From Bacteriovoracaceae bacterium (GTDB lineage: Bacteria; Bdellovibrionota; Bacteriovoracia; Bacteriovoracales; Bacteriovoracaceae): a stretch of DNA of 64,000 nucleotides. This document shows positions 4,000-21,685 of the stretch, one piece after another. The position numbers were made by a program, and so were the translations under genes. Where the stretch lies: assembly GCA_048270185.1 (NCBI GenBank), contig JBLWTJ010000001.1:768001-832000 (forward strand), in the 5' to 3' direction. Under the pieces are notes generated by a model. It was not told where the DNA came from, made no database searches, and was given only the letters and a program-made list of their open reading frames with translations. Position 1 is the first letter of the stretch; each line of letters opens with the position of its first letter.

Positions 4000-4614
4000 T
4001 TGATGTTTTATCAACAACTTAGGCCATATCTTTCGAACACTAGCGTCAAAAAGCTTAAATTAAAGCGTGGTCAAATTATCTACCATCAAGGCGATGACCC
4101 CAAGGAATTATTCCTCGTGGATAGTGGTGTTATTGGCCTCTTTCATATTTCAGAAAACGGAAAGGAAACCTTTCTGCGTGTCTTTAATAAAGACTGTATT
4201 TTTGGCCATCGTTCATTTTTTGCCGAAAGTCCATATCACGCAACTTCCATTGCCCTGACAGAATGCGAGATCAGCGTCATTTCAAAAGATGCCTGTGATG
4301 AAATCTGTGCAAAGGAGCCAGGCCTTTTAAAGATGCTCACAAAATCAATTGCCAAGAACCTTGCAGATGCCGAGCTAAGACTTGCCGGCCTGCTTGATAA
4401 GTCGGCCAATCAGAGGATTGTAGAGTCTCTTATTTTCTTCAAACTAAAGTATCCAGAAAAAGTTTGGACGCGAAAAGAGATCGCCGACTTTTGCGGCAGT
4501 ACTTACGAGACTGTCACAAGAGTTATGACTGAGCTAAATGAAAACGGCCTCATTAGAAAACAAGGCCGTGACTTTGATATTTTAAATATTGAAGCTTTAC
4601 TAAAGTACTATTAA
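4000..4614 (+). CDS. Crp/Fnr family transcriptional regulator
   Basis: cNMP-binding-like domain (IYHQGD...IFGHRSFF) and C-terminal HTH (TRKEIADFCGSTYETVTR). Start is TTG 4000 or ATG 4003. Confidence 0.9.
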   Translation: MMFYQQLRPYLSNTSVKKLKLKRGQIIYHQGDDPKELFLVDSGVIGLFHISENGKETFLRVFNKDCIFGHRSFFAESPYHATSIALTECEISVISKDACDEICAKEPGLLKMLTKSIAKNLADAELRLAGLLDKSANQRIVESLIFFKLKYPEKVWTRKEIADFCGSTYETVTRVMTELNENGLIRKQGRDFDILNIEALLKYY

Positions 4615-5771
4615 ATTGCTTCTTGTGGCCCAAAAAATTCAATATTAATTGAAGATTCTGCAACACCTAATTCTATTAGGTGTTTTTTCATGGCTTGCAT
4701 GAATGCTTTAGGCCCACAAATGTAGATTTCACTGTTATCTTTTAATAAATCAGAAAGAAACGATTTCTCGATACGTCCTCTGTACTCATTGGCCAAGAGG
4801 ATCTCATCACTATTTTCATAGAAATAATTAATTTCAATATTTTCATTATTCTCTGATAAATTATTAAGTTCATTTTTAAATGCCACTTCATTCTTAGATT
4901 TTGTAGCATAAACAAATTTAGCATTCGTTTCTGGATTGATGGCATTTAGCATACTTAATAATGGAGTGATTCCAATACCACCGGCCAAGAAAAGACAATT
5001 TTGAGACATGCCTTTATAAGTGAATACACCTGATGGTGCAGCAAGTTCAACTTCATCTCCAACGCTAATTTGGTCATGAAGAAAATTCGATACATGGCCA
5101 TTTGGTTTACCTAATGCGCGTTTAACGCTAATACGTAAGAAATTTGAATCGCCAAAATTTGAAAGGCTATAATTACGCATTGTCGTACTATTCTCAAGAG
5201 GGACTCTCACAGTTGTAAATTGACCTGCATTAAATTTTGGAATTATCGATCCATCTATAGGAACTAAATGAAAGGACTTAATCAATTCATTCTCGTCAAC
5301 GATATTAGTAACTTTAAATTTTTTAAATCCTTTATATGCTTGTTCTTCATAGATTTTCTTTTCTGCATCAATAAAGATATCAGCAAGGAAAAAATATGCA
5401 TCTTTCCAAGCATTAATAATTTCATCAGTAGCCGTATCACCAAGAACATCTTTAATAGCACCAAGTAAATTTACGCCTACTATAGGGTAATGCTCTGGCA
5501 TTACCTTTAAAGAAGCATGCTTATGTGTAATTAATTCAACGGCCTCACCAAGCGCACCGAGGTTATCAATATTCATAGCATAGGCGCAAATCGCTCCAGC
5601 AAGGGCCTCTTGTTGTGAACCTTTAGCCTGATTTGCAAGATTGAAGTATGGAAGAACTTCCGGATTATTTTCGAACATTTTCTTATAGAAATGCTTAGTT
5701 AAAACTACTCCATTCTCCTGTAAGACAGGTGCAGTGGACTTAATGATATTAATCGTATCTTGAGACAACAT
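4611..5771 (-). CDS. hmp: Flavohaemoglobin (NO dioxygenase)
   Basis: Globin domain (MLSQDTINIIKST, HFYKKMF, KHASL, PEHYPIVG) plus FAD/NAD reductase (RNYSLS, AGGIGITP, YICGP, EFFGP). ATG at 5771 follows AAGGAG. Confidence 0.95.
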   Translation of the reverse strand: MLSQDTINIIKSTAPVLQENGVVLTKHFYKKMFENNPEVLPYFNLANQAKGSQQEALAGAICAYAMNIDNLGALGEAVELITHKHASLKVMPEHYPIVGVNLLGAIKDVLGDTATDEIINAWKDAYFFLADIFIDAEKKIYEEQAYKGFKKFKVTNIVDENELIKSFHLVPIDGSIIPKFNAGQFTTVRVPLENSTTMRNYSLSNFGDSNFLRISVKRALGKPNGHVSNFLHDQISVGDEVELAAPSGVFTYKGMSQNCLFLAGGIGITPLLSMLNAINPETNAKFVYATKSKNEVAFKNELNNLSENNENIEINYFYENSDEILLANEYRGRIEKSFLSDLLKDNSEIYICGPKAFMQAMKKHLIELGVAESSINIEFFGPQEAI

Positions 5772-5789
5772 AGAGAACTCCTTAGTCAA

Positions 5790-5812
5790 AACATGTATTT
5801 AAAATACATATT
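5790..5812. promoter_or_regulatory. NsrR operator (11-1-11 inverted repeat)
   Basis: AACATGTATTT-A-AAATACATATT, close to the known NsrR consensus, between divergent hmp and nsrR. A weaker copy lies at 5843-5865. Confidence 0.85.
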
Positions 5813-5913
5813 TAAGTTTCTTTCAAATATTCGTCAACCTTAAATATGTATTTTATATATGTATTTATAGTTTTTTAAACAAATCCAGCCAGATATATGA
5901 TATTAATAATTTC

Positions 5914-6351
5914 ATGAAACTAACTTCATATACAGACTACTCCATTCGCGTTCTTATGTTTCTGGCCCTAAAGCAATCTGGTAATACTGATTTAATCACG
6001 TCGAATGATATTTCTGAAGTTTATGGTATTTCACGAAATCATCTATCTAAAATAATTCATCAACTTTCAAAACTTGGTTATATCGAAAGCTTCAAGGGAG
6101 CATCTGGTGGTATTCGGCTTATTGAAAAACCAAAGAATATCAATTTAGGAAAATTAATAAGAGAGATGGAGAATGATTTTCACATCGTTGAATGCTTTAA
6201 TAAGGACGCTAAAACGGCCTGCCGAATATCACCAAGCTGTAAACTTAAATCAATAATCAATGAATCACTCAATCAATTCCTAAACAATCTTTCACGCTAC
6301 AGTTTAGCAGACATAATTGAAAATCGAATAGAGCTGTTAAACGATTTATAA
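5914..6351 (+). CDS. nsrR: Rrf2 family NO-sensing repressor NsrR
   Basis: MKLTSYTDYSIRVLMFLA, ISRNHLSK, GASGG, three Fe-S Cys (VECF...TACRISPSC); divergent from hmp. Confidence 0.9.
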   Translation: MKLTSYTDYSIRVLMFLALKQSGNTDLITSNDISEVYGISRNHLSKIIHQLSKLGYIESFKGASGGIRLIEKPKNINLGKLIREMENDFHIVECFNKDAKTACRISPSCKLKSIINESLNQFLNNLSRYSLADIIENRIELLNDL

Positions 6352-6354
6352 AAG

Positions 6355-6573
6355 GTACGCGACACCTTTATACAATTCTAACTACTTAAAGTTTTAAAAT
6401 TGCACCACGAATCTAAAGAGTTGCCTTATTATTAGGCTTGGTTAAGATATTAAGTCGAAATAATTAGTGAAACTAATAAATTCAAAAAAGTTGAAACCTT
6501 TCGGATAAAATTATCATTTAAATAAGAAAATTAGCCAGCTAAAAGGCTGAAATTGCATAAAGGTGTCGCGTAC
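6355..6573. repeat. Inverted pair of REP-like repeats (REPIN/MITE-like)
   Basis: GTACGCGACACCTTTAT(A/G)CAATT at 6355-6377 and inverted at 6551-6573 (22/23 identical). Left copy forms the hairpin AAAGGT-ACGCGAC-ACCTTT. AT-rich non-coding spacer. Confidence 0.75.
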
Positions 6574-6590
6574 TTTATTGAAGATCACTA

Positions 6591-6729
6591 AGTTCACTTC
6601 GTGAACTGTCGCTGGTTGGGTTTAAGTTTATTAAGGGGATTTACTGGATTGCTTAGTTTCTTCACCTGACCTCCCATACTGGTCGGTCGGCGTTGTTCAG
6701 CGTCATTTTGCCATCGTGGCAAATGCCGC
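6591..6729. repeat. Cluster of GC-rich intergenic hairpins
   Basis: AGTTCAC-TTC-GTGAACT (6591-6607); CTGAC-CTCCCATACTGGTCG-GTCGG (6666-6690); GCGTCATTTTGCCA-TCG-TGGCAAATGCCGC (6700-6729). Confidence 0.5.
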
Positions 6730-6733
6730 TTCC

Positions 6734-6763
6734 AAAAAAAAAGCCGGTTCAGTGAACCGGCTT
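6734..6763 (-). terminator. Rho-independent terminator
   Basis: Minus strand AAGCCGGTTC-ACT-GAACCGGCTT running into a T9 tract. Confidence 0.85.
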
Positions 6764-6825
6764 CTTAAAGAGAGACATTTTTGACGGAGTGAAAAAATCC
6801 TTTCTTCTGCTCCAACACACACACG
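6734..6825 (-). ncRNA. Candidate sigma-54-dependent small RNA (~90 nt)
   Basis: Lies between a consensus -24/-12 promoter and a strong terminator, with no RBS-led ORF; GU-rich 5' end. Confidence 0.5.
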
Positions 6826-6835
6826 TTTATATATA

Positions 6836-6852
6836 AGCAAGGCCCGTGCCAA
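6836..6852 (-). promoter_or_regulatory. Sigma-54 (RpoN) promoter
   Basis: TTGGCACGGGCCTTGCT matches TGGCAC-N5-TTGCW exactly. Upstream palindrome TGTCA-N10-TGACA at 6915-6934 is a candidate enhancer site. Confidence 0.75.
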
Positions 6853-6949
6853 CTTTTGCACAGGTATGACGCATAGAAAAGGTACTGAAAATATATAATA
6901 ATGATAAATGTCGATGTCATATTAATGACTGACACATGAAGCCAATGTG

Positions 6950-7189
6950 TTACTTAATTGACTTTAGAAAGCGAGACAATTTCATCATGCCAATATCACA
7001 GGCTTCAGTTTCATCTTCGGCTCCAAACACTTGATCAACATGCTTAAAAATTTTCTTTGTTTCTTTATAAACAATTGAGACTTCTGCATTGAAACCTTTG
7101 TTAGTTCGGTTAACTTCTATCTGGCCAATGAGATTGTCATTATTTTGTAAAGTCACATAAAAATCTTTCGGATAATCATTTTGTTTCAT
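6950..7189 (-). CDS. Hypothetical protein
   Basis: 79-aa ORF with plausible composition; no recognised motif. Confidence 0.65.
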   Translation of the reverse strand: MKQNDYPKDFYVTLQNNDNLIGQIEVNRTNKGFNAEVSIVYKETKKIFKHVDQVFGAEDETEACDIGMMKLSRFLKSIK

Positions 7190-7223
7190 ATACTTGATTT
7201 ATCTAAATCAAAGGAGAAAGACA

Positions 7224-7766
7224 ATGAAATTTATTATCGCTGGTCTACTCTTCTCTAGTATGACTTTTGCTCAATGTTATGAAGTAAATAATGCCAATAC
7301 TAAAGTGAAGTGGACGGCCTTTAAGACAGCTAAGAAAGTTGGTGTTAAAGGAGAATTTAAAAAGTTTGATATCAAAACGACGAAGAAGCAAGGGACTATT
7401 GAAGAACTAGTTCGCGGTGCTCGTTTTACTATCGACGTGAACTCAGTTCATACAAAAGATACTTCACGTGATGCGAAGATCGAAAAATTCTTCTTCCAAG
7501 ATATGAAAGTATCTGGAGTTGTCTCTAAAGTTGATAAGAACTATCTCTATGTTGATATGACTCTTGCAGGTAAGACTGTAAAGGTTCCTATGAAGTATGA
7601 TATTGAAGATGGTGAACTAGAAGCTGAAGCTACAATTGATGTACTCGACTTCGCTCTAAGTAAAAATCTTTCGGCCATCAACAAGGCCTGTCTTGCTCTT
7701 CACGAAGGTAAGACTTGGAATGTTGTTGACGTCGAAATCGAATCTAAGTTCTCAAAGTGTAAATAA
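7224..7766 (+). CDS. YceI family periplasmic protein
   Basis: Signal peptide; VKWTAFKT...GVKGEF and SVHTKDTSRDAKI motifs; ATG 7224 follows AAGGAG. Confidence 0.85.
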   Translation: MKFIIAGLLFSSMTFAQCYEVNNANTKVKWTAFKTAKKVGVKGEFKKFDIKTTKKQGTIEELVRGARFTIDVNSVHTKDTSRDAKIEKFFFQDMKVSGVVSKVDKNYLYVDMTLAGKTVKVPMKYDIEDGELEAEATIDVLDFALSKNLSAINKACLALHEGKTWNVVDVEIESKFSKCK

Positions 7767-7779
7767 TTCACACACTAAC

Positions 7780-7813
7780 GGCCAAGATTGCTGAACATTC
7801 AGTAATTTTGGCC
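7780..7813. terminator. Stem-loop after the YceI gene
   Basis: GGCCAAGATTGCTGAA-CA-TTCAGTAATTTTGGCC long hairpin; U-tract weak. Confidence 0.45.
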
Positions 7814-7888
7814 AGTGTTCTTTGAATATTTTTTTATTTATGTCCATAATCAGGCTTCGCTTCACTGAAGTAAGCGTTAAACACTGGC

Positions 7889-8719
7889 CTGGAGGCATAT
7901 TTCAAAAAGATCTTAACCCTACTACTCTCCCTGTCGATTCACATAACCTATGCACAGGTAAATGAAATAGCCGTGCAGGAAGAAGAAAGTAGCATCATTG
8001 ACCTTTCAAATTTTAAATTACTTTACTTAAACTCTACTTATGGTGAAATGAATGCCAGTCAAAGAGATGGTATTTATATGGATCACTTAATGTACTTTCG
8101 TTACAACTTAACGAAAGATCAAAATATTCGTTGGGTTCCTGTCTATACTCAGATTTTTGGACAAGAAGGTGAAAAGAGTATTCAAGGTGATTACGCTTAC
8201 TCATCTTTTAGGTGGTATGTGAATAATATCCTGACGGAAAAAGATCATGGTGTGAGTCTTAATTTTCAAAATCGAAATTATATCTTTGATGGTGAAGATC
8301 GTGACAGTGGTTACGACAGTTATCACCGTGCGTACTTTCTATTCACAAAGAACACGACCAACTTCACTTTTGAGCTAAATACTTATGCGCAAATCTATAA
8401 TCGCAATGGACGTGATCCGAATACTAACACTTGGCGTACGATGCTTGGAACATTTGCATTCTACAACTTCAATGACAACTGGGGCCTAGGTCTTGGAAGT
8501 GAGTGGTATACCGATCACCGTGATGGAAAGAAAAGAATTGGTGATGATCGAATGGTACTTTATTTACCATACCTTCGATATGCTAAAGGCGATGGCTTTG
8601 TTGAACTCTATGCAACTTATACGGCCTGTAAATCAGGAGATGGAGATCATGCCATGATTATTGATGACTTCCATGAGAATGGAACGCTAACTCTTGATGT
8701 GGGTTACTATATCTTTTAA
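7889..8719 (+). CDS. Probable outer-membrane beta-barrel protein; start codon non-canonical or mutated
   Basis: Aromatic-rich alternating strands and C-terminal LDVGYYIF (terminal Phe). An in-frame signal peptide FKKILTLLLSLSIHITYA is encoded upstream of the track's GTG 7973; in-frame stop at 7871; start placed provisionally at CTG 7889. Confidence 0.6.
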   Translation: MEAYFKKILTLLLSLSIHITYAQVNEIAVQEEESSIIDLSNFKLLYLNSTYGEMNASQRDGIYMDHLMYFRYNLTKDQNIRWVPVYTQIFGQEGEKSIQGDYAYSSFRWYVNNILTEKDHGVSLNFQNRNYIFDGEDRDSGYDSYHRAYFLFTKNTTNFTFELNTYAQIYNRNGRDPNTNTWRTMLGTFAFYNFNDNWGLGLGSEWYTDHRDGKKRIGDDRMVLYLPYLRYAKGDGFVELYATYTACKSGDGDHAMIIDDFHENGTLTLDVGYYIF

Positions 8720-20586: not shown

Positions 20587-20629
20587 TTATATATTGCATA
20601 TAAGTTTTAAAGCACACACAGAGGGTATT

Positions 20630-21685
20630 ATGAAAAACCAAAATCTTTCTAAAATTCTAACTATCGCAATTTTCACAGGAATTGTTCCACTTTCATCTTA
20701 TGCAAATATCTGTAAGATCATTGAAGCTAAGTTTGAAAGAACTGAATATAAGAAGATCAGCGACTTTGATGATGACTTTAAAGAAAGGTATGAAAAATAC
20801 AAGAAACGTTGTGACTTAGATAAGTATGCTAAAGCTGAAAAAGAATACCAAAAGAAAGTGAAAGAACAAAAAGCTGATGCAAAAGAACGAGAAGATCTAA
20901 AGAAAGATCGTGAGACTTTTAAGCTAACAAAAGAAGAAATTAGAGACTACTACGACAACTCTCCTATTATCGCTTACCGTGGAGTTTTAAGATATAGCAC
21001 TTACAATGGAAAAAAGAATATTTATCTACAAAAAGCCTCTGATGCTAATGCTGTTTGTAAGAATCTTCTTGACGACAAAAATGCAATGGCAAAGAGTGCG
21101 ACAATCACATTTGCAGAAAAAGAGCACTTTACAGATACAAATACAGTAGAAATGTCAGACGTACTTGAGCAAAATTATGATGGAGACTCTTCACTTGGTT
21201 TTACAATTGAGAATAAAGGATTCTTCAGCTCATCTGAAGATGTCGTGGCAGGTACTGTTGTAAAGAAGTTTGAAACAGATAGAAAGAAGAGACTTGAGTT
21301 CTTAGCTGATCTACAGATTAGACAAGCTTCAGGAAGGCCATCAACTTTTATTGGAGATATTAGAGCACTTGAGTTTACTGATATTGAATGTGTTGTAAAT
21401 CCAGTAAATAAGAAAGATGATCTTGAAGATATTAAAACTAAATTAACTGTTAAAACAAAGGTTAATGAATTGATTGTTGACGGGGAAAAAGAAGAACAAA
21501 AAATTGCAATTAATTTTGATGACCAAGAACTAAGAAACTTTACAAAGCAAAAAGGTGTAAAAGACGACTCAAATGACAGAACAGTGAATGACACTAATCG
21601 TGGCGGAGCAAGCTCAAGTGACTACACGACTGACGATATTATCGATGACATCATGAACGGTGGCTCAAGATCATTTGGACAATAA
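20630..21685 (+). CDS. Secreted hypothetical protein
   Basis: ATG 20630 after GAGGG gives signal peptide MKNQNLSKILTIAIFTGIVPLSSYA. The track's upstream TTG start overlaps the promoter. Confidence 0.8.
   Translation: MKNQNLSKILTIAIFTGIVPLSSYANICKIIEAKFERTEYKKISDFDDDFKERYEKYKKRCDLDKYAKAEKEYQKKVKEQKADAKEREDLKKDRETFKLTKEEIRDYYDNSPIIAYRGVLRYSTYNGKKNIYLQKASDANAVCKNLLDDKNAMAKSATITFAEKEHFTDTNTVEMSDVLEQNYDGDSSLGFTIENKGFFSSSEDVVAGTVVKKFETDRKKRLEFLADLQIRQASGRPSTFIGDIRALEFTDIECVVNPVNKKDDLEDIKTKLTVKTKVNELIVDGEKEEQKIAINFDDQELRNFTKQKGVKDDSNDRTVNDTNRGGASSSDYTTDDIIDDIMNGGSRSFGQ

Follow-up and report, generated by a model that had tools for sequence, protein, structure and literature searches.

A family-wide small RNA gene behind a sigma-54 promoter in Bacteriovoracaceae, with a GU-repeat seed probably directed at CA-repeat mRNA leaders

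The DNA analysed here, referred to as the window, is a stretch of 64,000 nucleotides (nt) from contig JBLWTJ010000001.1 of a Bacteriovoracaceae bacterium (phylum Bdellovibrionota, assembly GCA_048270185.1), which carries on its minus strand, at positions 6734-6825, the gene of a small RNA (sRNA). This sRNA represents a new family of a known kind of regulator, being family-wide, single-copy and placed behind a sigma-54 promoter with dedicated activator sites. Computation establishes the gene together with promoter, activator sites, structure and taxonomic range, as well as a statistical link between the sRNA and mRNA leaders with CA runs, which are complementary to the GU run at the 5' end of the sRNA. 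The best-supported conserved candidate targets lie in deoxynucleotide synthesis and replication, and the sRNA may switch off genes for DNA building blocks via their CA-repeat leaders. An earlier note on this DNA, made from the letters of the window, had proposed an enhancer-controlled, sigma-54-dependent regulatory RNA at this position, and all computational tests available favour an independent gene of this kind.

The gene and its predicted RNA

Coordinates are window positions throughout and the locus is read on the minus strand, where an open reading frame (ORF) of 79 amino acids (aa) is followed by two activator sites, an AT-rich spacer, the promoter, the GU run, a hairpin, the UGUCUCUC motif and a terminator. 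The features are:

6949-6962, minus: distal site for a bacterial enhancer-binding protein (the activator), GTCAATTAAGTAAC, one mismatch to GTCA-N6-TGAC, overlapping the stop codon of the 79-aa ORF
6916-6929, minus: proximal activator site GTCATTAATATGAC, exact GTCA-N6-TGAC, core of TGTCA-N10-TGACA at 6934-6915
6835-6852, minus: sigma-54 promoter TTGGCACGGGCCTTGCTT, -24 GG at 6850-6849 and -12 GC at 6838-6837
6734-6825, minus: predicted sRNA of about 92 nt, from the predicted +1 at C6825 to the end of the U tract
6815-6824, minus: 5' (GU)5 run GUGUGUGUGU, the proposed seed, unpaired in the consensus fold
6786-6813, minus: hairpin 1, outer stem GGAG...CUCC, inner stem A/U-rich
6800-6798, minus: GGA of the near-invariant A-GGA-UU in the apical loop of hairpin 1
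6770-6777, minus: single-stranded UGUCUCUC motif, possible second pairing site, complementary to GAGAGACA
6734-6763, minus: Rho-independent terminator, stem of 10-13 bp, loop of 3 nt, nine U

The predicted start, C6825, lies twelve bases past the -12 C of the promoter. The distance of about 92 nt from this base to the end of the U tract agrees with the terminator that the earlier note had placed some 90 nt downstream, and the promoter, palindrome, AT-rich linker and terminator that it described are all present. The terminator stem occupies 6763-6741 and the nine-U run 6742-6734. A 93-nt stretch folds with a minimum free energy of -28.4 kcal/mol, compared with -19.65 +/- 3.12 for 200 shuffled sequences (z -2.8), one of which folds equally well. 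A simple terminator scan lists four other sites in 5800-8000 and omits the hairpin of the sRNA, although this hairpin is visible in the fold of the RNA. With its own promoter, a Rho-independent terminator, non-coding sequence and a conserved structure, the region has the properties of an independent sRNA unit. We regard it as almost certain that this is a real, stand-alone sRNA gene, and we infer that it is transcribed.

Conservation in the Bacteriovoracaceae

BLAST comparison with 40 relatives returns a conserved block at query positions 99-227, corresponding to window positions 6862-6734 and hence exactly to the interval from promoter to terminator, in the genus of the window and in six other genera. 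Promoter, seed and terminator, whose fate in relatives the earlier note had put forward as a check, are all conserved across genera within this one block. A scan of GTDB, with each species represented by a single genome, for the pattern GU run, gap, AGGATT, gap, GTCTCTC gives at least 119 matches, and the 80 matches listed belong nearly all to records titled Bacteriovoracaceae, Halobacteriovorax, Bacteriovorax, Peredibacter or to metagenome-assembled genomes (MAGs) of Bdellovibrionota. One record titled as a Sulfitobacter sp. MAG (L104) carries an sRNA and flanks identical to those of Halobacteriovorax-type records (L086, L021), and this bin is probably mislabelled or contaminated.

Two covariance models describe the same distribution. 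The first (R1), built on an RNAalifold structure, captured only five pairs because MAFFT had misaligned the stems, and was replaced by a second (R2) with a hand-given structure. R1 detects a single copy in each of 19 of 23 sampled family genomes and in the window genome, and no copy in the 127 genomes that represent 24 other families of the phylum, while R2 finds one copy each in 22 of 31 family genomes representing 30 genera. Matches to the sRNA score 57-100 bits, with one copy per genome. In the four family genomes missed by R1, the best match reaches 22.8 bits (E 0.27) and has neither promoter nor GU run, and a promoter-plus-GU pattern occurs in none of five further genomes without the sRNA.

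Within the RNA, the (GU)5 run and UGUCUCUC are both invariant in the BLAST-found homologues. Loss of seed conservation, which the earlier note had held up against its own proposal, is not observed, as a GU run of 6-16 nt is present in all homologues. Counted from the -12 C, this run starts 10-13 nt downstream, and therefore at -1 to +3, at 89 of the 91 distinct loci, and 14-15 nt downstream at the other two. The loop GGA is found in 100 of 100 aligned homologues. Homologues found by the model outside the pattern selection have GU runs of 6-16 nt, with AGGAAU in two and GUCUCUU in two, and since the motifs persist in these sequences their near-invariance is not an artefact of the search pattern. 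Few non-coding elements of the family are as strongly conserved as the sRNA.

A covarying fold

For the analysis of structure, 100 matches (90 distinct) were aligned to R2. In this alignment, which is fitted to the given structure and so favours it, 94.3% of cells are paired compared with 78.5% in column shuffles, and 259 cells are changed on both sides compared with 64 expected; none of 500 shuffles attains the observed values of pairing and covariation. Compensatory changes occur in 17 of 19 pairs and in both hairpins. Helices 1 and 2, which form hairpin 1, are 93-95% paired with compensatory changes in 12 of 14 pairs, and helix 3, the terminator, is 96% paired with such changes in all 5 pairs. 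When the 3' partners are slid as a control, pairing falls to 42-67%. When RNAalifold predicts a structure of its own from this alignment, the two hairpins appear again, and the GU run and GUCUCUC stay single-stranded.

Promoter and activator sites

The promoter that the earlier note had marked at 6852-6836 conforms to the TGGCAC-N5-TTGCW consensus with the correct 4-nt spacing. The 3.35-Mb window genome contains 22 instances of the strict -24/-12 pattern. Among the 80 listed homologues, searched with TGGCA[CT]-N5-NTGC[AT], the strict motif stands directly upstream in 76 and the other four have one-base differences. The palindrome noticed about 100 bp upstream was likewise confirmed, with TGTCA-N10-TGACA at 6934-6915 centred about 98 nt upstream of +1, and at least one GTCA-N6-TGAC site (up to one mismatch) is present in 69 of the 80 listed loci. 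The positions of these sites pile up at about -78 and at about -110/-120 from TGGCA, some 31-33 bp or roughly three helical turns apart.

In the window genome a tandem pair of such sites (at most one mismatch in total, 29-35 bp apart) occurs once, at the sRNA promoter. An exact site lies upstream of only 2 of 46 relaxed sigma-54 promoter matches, namely the sRNA promoter and one before a subtilase gene, so the activator sites appear from their distribution to serve almost only the sRNA gene. The genome encodes rpoN and eight clear sigma-54 activator genes, none of the 81 loci has an activator gene adjacent to the sRNA, and on the combined evidence of promoter and sites the sRNA gene is very likely sigma-54 dependent.

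Two further promoters of the window genome deserve mention. The second one with an exact GTCA-N6-TGAC, here at -99 (G000:C1:292689-292804, L262), precedes the gene of a secreted subtilase (Peptidase_S8), which may be a second regulon member of the same activator. A sigma-54 promoter closely matching that of the sRNA (26-nt match, 96%) lies at G000:C1:148559 on the plus strand (L263), with a similar one in L024; it is followed by no obvious ORF and no Rfam match, and may drive another sigma-54-dependent non-coding RNA.

Proposed pairing with CA-repeat leaders

The proposal that a GU seed addresses CA-rich leaders receives comparative support from enrichment, recurrence and co-occurrence. The earlier note had suggested two targets in the window:

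941-950, minus: candidate target site AACACACACA, 2 nt upstream of the start ATG in a di-haem cytochrome c peroxidase gene that is truncated where the window begins
20611-20620, plus: candidate target site AGCACACACA, beside the ribosome-binding site of the gene for a 351-aa secreted protein at 20630-21685

Both complementarities are real. The duplex of the sRNA with the peroxidase leader has an energy of -14.2 kcal/mol (4 of 200 shuffles are as low) and that with the 20630 gene, which has its own TGGCAT-N5-TTGCT promoter, -14.1 kcal/mol (1 of 200). Neither target is well conserved, as set out below.

Across the window genome, all 70 8-mers of four A and four C were counted just upstream of a Shine-Dalgarno sequence followed by a start codon that opens a frame of 80 codons or more. 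The two alternating words rank first and second, ACACACAC with 9 of 34 and CACACACA with 7 of 47 occurrences in this context, compared with 73 of 6315 for the pooled words, and the next two ranks are taken by near-variants of the CA words. Genome-wide enrichment near ribosome-binding sites was among the checks that the earlier note had listed. GU runs on the sense strand are found in start context in 0 of 34 and 1 of 47 cases. The genes with CA leaders include two that follow sigma-54 promoters, encoding the 351-aa protein and an HNH nuclease, as well as those of endonuclease I, the di-haem peroxidase, gcvP, a parB-like gene, scpB, bamA, dnaE, gyrB and nrdB; as a background, a CA run of at least 6 nt is present in 73 of 2420 leaders (3.0%). 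The duplex of nrdB with the 5' seed reaches -19.6 kcal/mol (0 of 200 shuffles as low) and that of the HNH gene -17.1 kcal/mol (1 of 200). For thyA the seed gives -13.8 kcal/mol (4 of 200) and the 3' motif -16.2 kcal/mol (0 of 200).

Comparison between genomes used the pattern ACACACAC-N0-28-RGGR-N5-12-ATG, with hand sums in which nested matches are counted. In the phylum sample there are 83 matches in 20 sRNA-positive genomes, where the reversed-pattern control gives 8, compared with 1 match in the four family genomes lacking the sRNA and 113 in 127 genomes of other families. In the family sample, at least one match is present in 17 of 22 sRNA-positive and in 1 of 9 sRNA-lacking genomes, amounting to 62 and 7 matches respectively (reversed-pattern controls 6 and 3).

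The proteins behind 67 distinct matches in 18 sRNA-positive genomes, together with 15 from the window genome, fall into recurrent clusters whose identities are confirmed by Pfam. These are a DksA-like protein (8 genomes, 4 genera), the thymidylate synthase ThyA (7, 5), DnaE (5, 3), HNH (4, 3), RecA (3, 2) and NrdB (3, 2); peroxidase, ParB, GcvP and endonuclease I each form a pair. The thyA leaders of 13 of 20 sRNA-positive genomes, and of none of the nine in which the sRNA was not found, have a CA run of 6 nt or longer within 90 nt upstream (Fisher p 0.0012); for nrdB leaders the figures are 12 of 17 (13 counting an ambiguous start) and none of five (p 0.0096). On a quick and poorly resolved single-gene GyrB tree the sRNA-lacking genomes are scattered. 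The tree as drawn requires six changes and its well-supported branches force at least three, so that the association of sRNA and CA runs does not trace back to a single event.

The 3' motif offers a second potential contact. GAGAGACA, the complement of UGUCUCUC, overlaps the GGAGACA form of the Shine-Dalgarno sequence, and by eye such a sequence is present in the thyA leaders of 6 of 20 sRNA-positive and 0 of 9 sRNA-lacking genomes. Sequences of the GGAGACA type are also found in the nrdB and HNH leaders, with good duplex energies.

Proposed mode of action and its alternatives

The explanation that accounts best for these observations, and which we consider probable, is that a sigma-54-driven, trans-acting sRNA represses CA-leader mRNAs by pairing, independently of Hfq. 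In this scheme sigma-54 RNA polymerase would transcribe the sRNA from the promoter at 6852-6835, with an enhancer-binding protein bound at the pair of GTCA-N6-TGAC sites that lie some 100 and 130 bp upstream. The 5' GU run would then pair with (CA)n runs situated from a few to about 30 nt upstream of the target Shine-Dalgarno sequence, and in some targets UGUCUCUC would also pair with a Shine-Dalgarno sequence of the GGAGACA type, so that translation initiation would be blocked without Hfq. Action by GU/CA pairing as such is favoured by the conservation of the seed and the distribution of the CA runs. The predicted core regulon would comprise thyA, nrdB, dnaE, recA and the dksA-like gene together with lineage-specific genes (the HNH nuclease, secreted proteins); a regulon centred on deoxynucleotide synthesis and replication is a tentative proposal, for which the chances fall a little short of even. 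Dependence on sigma-54 in vivo, the pairing itself, the direction of regulation and the inducing signal are likewise what we infer from comparison of genomes.

A more far-reaching version sees the sRNA as an attack-phase brake on thyA, nrdB, dnaE, recA and the dksA-like gene, through which these obligate predators would hold back deoxynucleotide synthesis and DNA replication during the attack phase, when they do not replicate. The brake would act as a two-point clamp, with the GU run on the leader CA run and UGUCUCUC on a GGAGACA Shine-Dalgarno sequence; the invariant GGA loop would recruit CsrA as matchmaker in a lineage without Hfq, and lineages that lost the RNA would have lost the CA runs too. 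Taken with all of these parts, this version is speculative and on balance doubtful. If thyA, nrdB and dnaE are targets, the sRNA gives a direct handle on how predators couple DNA synthesis to prey entry, and its on-switch, sigma-54 with a dedicated pair of activator sites, is unusually clear. It would also be a clean model for sRNA action independent of Hfq, and the invariant signature of promoter plus seed is a specific marker for these predators in metagenomes.

Several observations weigh against repression through CA leaders, or against parts of it. The link between CA runs and the sRNA is correlative, related genomes are not independent, some of the genomes counted as sRNA-lacking are incomplete (66-75% for two), and CA repeats can by themselves enhance translation. 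All seven matches among the sRNA-lacking genomes of the family sample are in G181, where neither R2 nor the promoter-plus-GU pattern found the sRNA (this genome belongs to genus g120, measures 5.6 Mb and is 95% complete with 4% contamination). The CA run of thyA is absent in 7 of 20 sRNA-positive genomes. Of the targets suggested in the earlier note, the 351-aa protein occurs in only 2 of 31 family genomes and the CA run of the peroxidase leader was seen in one other genus. As conserved targets, the genus-restricted 351-aa and HNH proteins (2 and 3 of 31 genomes) were therefore discarded, as was gyrB, which has a CA leader in only 3 of 21 sRNA-positive genomes with a leader read.

The second contact and the activator meet objections of their own. 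GGAGACA is not enriched at start sites genome-wide (19 of 175, compared with 40 of 367 and 57 of 614 for other GGAGNNN words) and no more than 4 of the 67 CA leaders contain GAGACA, the background being 1.5%, for which reasons the two-site clamp is treated as a hypothesis. Moreover, the CA run lies 5' of the Shine-Dalgarno sequence on the mRNA, which is the same order as that of the matching sites on the sRNA, so simultaneous pairing would need a looped, non-coaxial geometry. In a quick tree of 68 sigma-54 activators from the window genome, four sRNA-positive and four sRNA-lacking genomes, with lower-scoring loci left out, no orthogroup tracks presence or absence of the sRNA, and each orthogroup with an activator of the window genome also contains proteins of genomes without it.

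RNA-library data bear on whether there is a separate RNA gene at all. Two runs contained about 9% of sampled words, and four low-depth contigs, from relatives, cover 6692-6860 and 6952-7015, with the stretch 6736-6860 taking in the promoter too, which means that DNA carry-over or read-through is possible and that no start, strand or level can be derived from them. One of these contigs runs from the upstream ORF on into the RNA region, as would be expected if the RNA were the 3' untranslated region or terminator of the 79-aa ORF (7189-6950); the earlier note had itself cautioned that the terminator might serve this gene. However, the ORF (6950-7189), which has no Pfam family, has homologues directly upstream on the same strand at only 23 of the 81 loci. 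At others the adjacent gene is of pal type and divergent, and promoter, GU run and terminator are conserved whatever the neighbour, so the caution can be set aside. A tiny peptide is the other form of this view. An ATG with nine codons (ATG 6778) is indeed present in the window, but homologues have TTG or ACG in its place or lack it, and they do not preserve the frame that follows, and we reject it as a coding sequence. That no separate RNA gene exists is, in either form, hardly tenable.

It could also be that the RNA is real and works mainly via CsrA, with the loop GGA, perhaps together with the GGAG at the stem base, binding CsrA as a sponge or for use as a chaperone, and the GU run being secondary. 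The near-invariant A-GGA-UU (AGGAAU in the two R2-found homologues) sits in the loop of a covarying hairpin, which is the presentation of GGA that CsrA prefers, and CsrA is encoded in the window genome, where ProQ was not found; Hfq was found in none of the 31 family genomes, whereas control genomes did yield Hfq matches. However, RNAs of the CsrB/Rsm type have five or more GGA, mostly in loops, and known CsrA sponges carry many, while here a single loop GGA is accompanied by one that is base-paired in a stem. The csrA gene adjoins fliW (G000:C4:260182-260903), an arrangement that goes with antagonism of CsrA by a protein, and the invariant GU run and its link to CA leaders would be left unexplained. 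A better sponge candidate is a separate RNA at G000:C2:557933 to about 557560 (minus strand, L264), where a consensus sigma-54 promoter is followed by an ORF-less, GGA-rich stretch of about 380 nt and a strong terminator, features which make it a candidate CsrB/Rsm-like sponge of CsrA. This RNA has no Rfam match, is 80% identical over 382 nt in a genome of the same genus, and was not found by BLAST in four other genera. A role mainly via CsrA is rather improbable for the sRNA.

The remaining alternative accepts a sigma-54-driven sRNA and regards the CA runs as an independent, lineage-specific translational enhancer, the co-occurrence reflecting shared ancestry and the true targets lying elsewhere, reached for instance via the CU-rich UGUCUCUC region as an anti-Shine-Dalgarno sequence. 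The 3' motif does form good duplexes with Shine-Dalgarno regions. CA runs precede varied housekeeping genes (gyrB, bamA, gcvP, scpB), the run before a given gene is evolutionarily labile, and G181 has CA leaders with no sRNA found. Against this, only the strictly alternating CA 8-mers, among 70 of matched composition, concentrate at start sites. CA leaders are missing in eight of the nine family genomes in which the sRNA was not found, which are scattered on the tree, and conservation within the RNA is highest in the GU run, the perfect complement of the CA runs. We therefore consider an independent enhancer unlikely, and return to repression by GU/CA pairing as the preferred reading.

Relation to known small RNAs

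The sRNA belongs to a family that is new to Rfam and, as far as literature searches show, to print. At gathering score the whole window gives no Rfam matches, and in the local region a search with E up to 10 gives 19 weak ones, of which the strongest scores 25.7 bits, with the cut-off at 50, and covers the terminator only; the earlier note's description of the RNA as undescribed agrees with the lack of a matching Rfam family. No regulatory RNA of Bacteriovoracaceae (Halobacteriovorax, Bacteriovorax, Peredibacter) was found in the literature, as represented by listings and the opening parts of abstracts.

The comparisons with Qrr and GcvB made in the earlier note hold as analogies and fail as kinship, with no Rfam match to either and no Hfq found. 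Qrr1-5 of Vibrio, which depend on sigma-54 and LuxO, are similarly small (about 100 nt), trans-acting and preceded by a consensus -24/-12 promoter with upstream activator sites. Their activator sites seem to be nearly exclusive to the sRNA gene, which parallels the unique tandem pair found here. However, no match to the Qrr model (RF00378) was obtained at E up to 10, and the present RNA differs in its activator site (GTCA-N6-TGAC), its seed, its phylum, its single copy per genome and the lack of a detectable Hfq in the family. What GcvB of enterobacteria has in common with the sRNA is the proposed pairing of a GU-rich single-stranded seed with CA-rich elements shortly before the Shine-Dalgarno sequences of numerous mRNAs. 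It is not homologous (no match to the covariance model of RF00022), and unlike GcvB the sRNA has a seed that is a pure dinucleotide repeat at the extreme 5' end, a sigma-54 promoter in place of GcvA dependence, no Hfq found in its family, and a candidate regulon of deoxynucleotide synthesis and replication in place of amino-acid transport.

To our knowledge, none of the other sigma-54-dependent sRNAs has a dinucleotide-repeat seed. GlmY, Pxr of Myxococcus and CrcZ are non-coding RNAs driven by an enhancer-binding protein and sigma-54. The same holds for NrsZ and an RpoN-dependent flagellar sRNA of Campylobacter, according to the respective reports (PMC4253122, PMC11187230). These five share the regulatory logic proposed here, although none matches the present RNA in Rfam and none is known from Bdellovibrionota.

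Genomic surroundings

The neighbourhood of the sRNA gene is partly conserved. In 65 of the 81 loci the terminator faces a convergent gene of the arginase family, and a trio of pal, DUF4398-like and ybgF-like genes (named by eye) diverges upstream in 41-43 of the 81. A DksA-like gene, often with a CA-run leader (L413-L429), lies 7-20 kb from the sRNA on the same contig in at least eight genera; the window genome is an exception, as its DksA-like gene at C1:87917 is not close to the sRNA.

Right past the sRNA terminator, at about 6660-6733 on the minus strand of the window, begins a dispersed repeat of about 75 nt that forms a hairpin. Further copies are found at G000:C2:557522-557567, C3:335176-335213 and C2:461548-461586, as well as in other genera. 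On contig C2 the repeat also stands behind the terminator of a further sigma-54-driven RNA. It may be a repetitive extragenic palindromic (REP)-like element or a miniature inverted-repeat transposable element (MITE). Just downstream of the sRNA, window positions 4000-6351 encode, as judged by eye from the translations, an Fnr/Crp-like regulator, an hmp-like flavohaemoprotein and an Rrf2/NsrR-like regulator.

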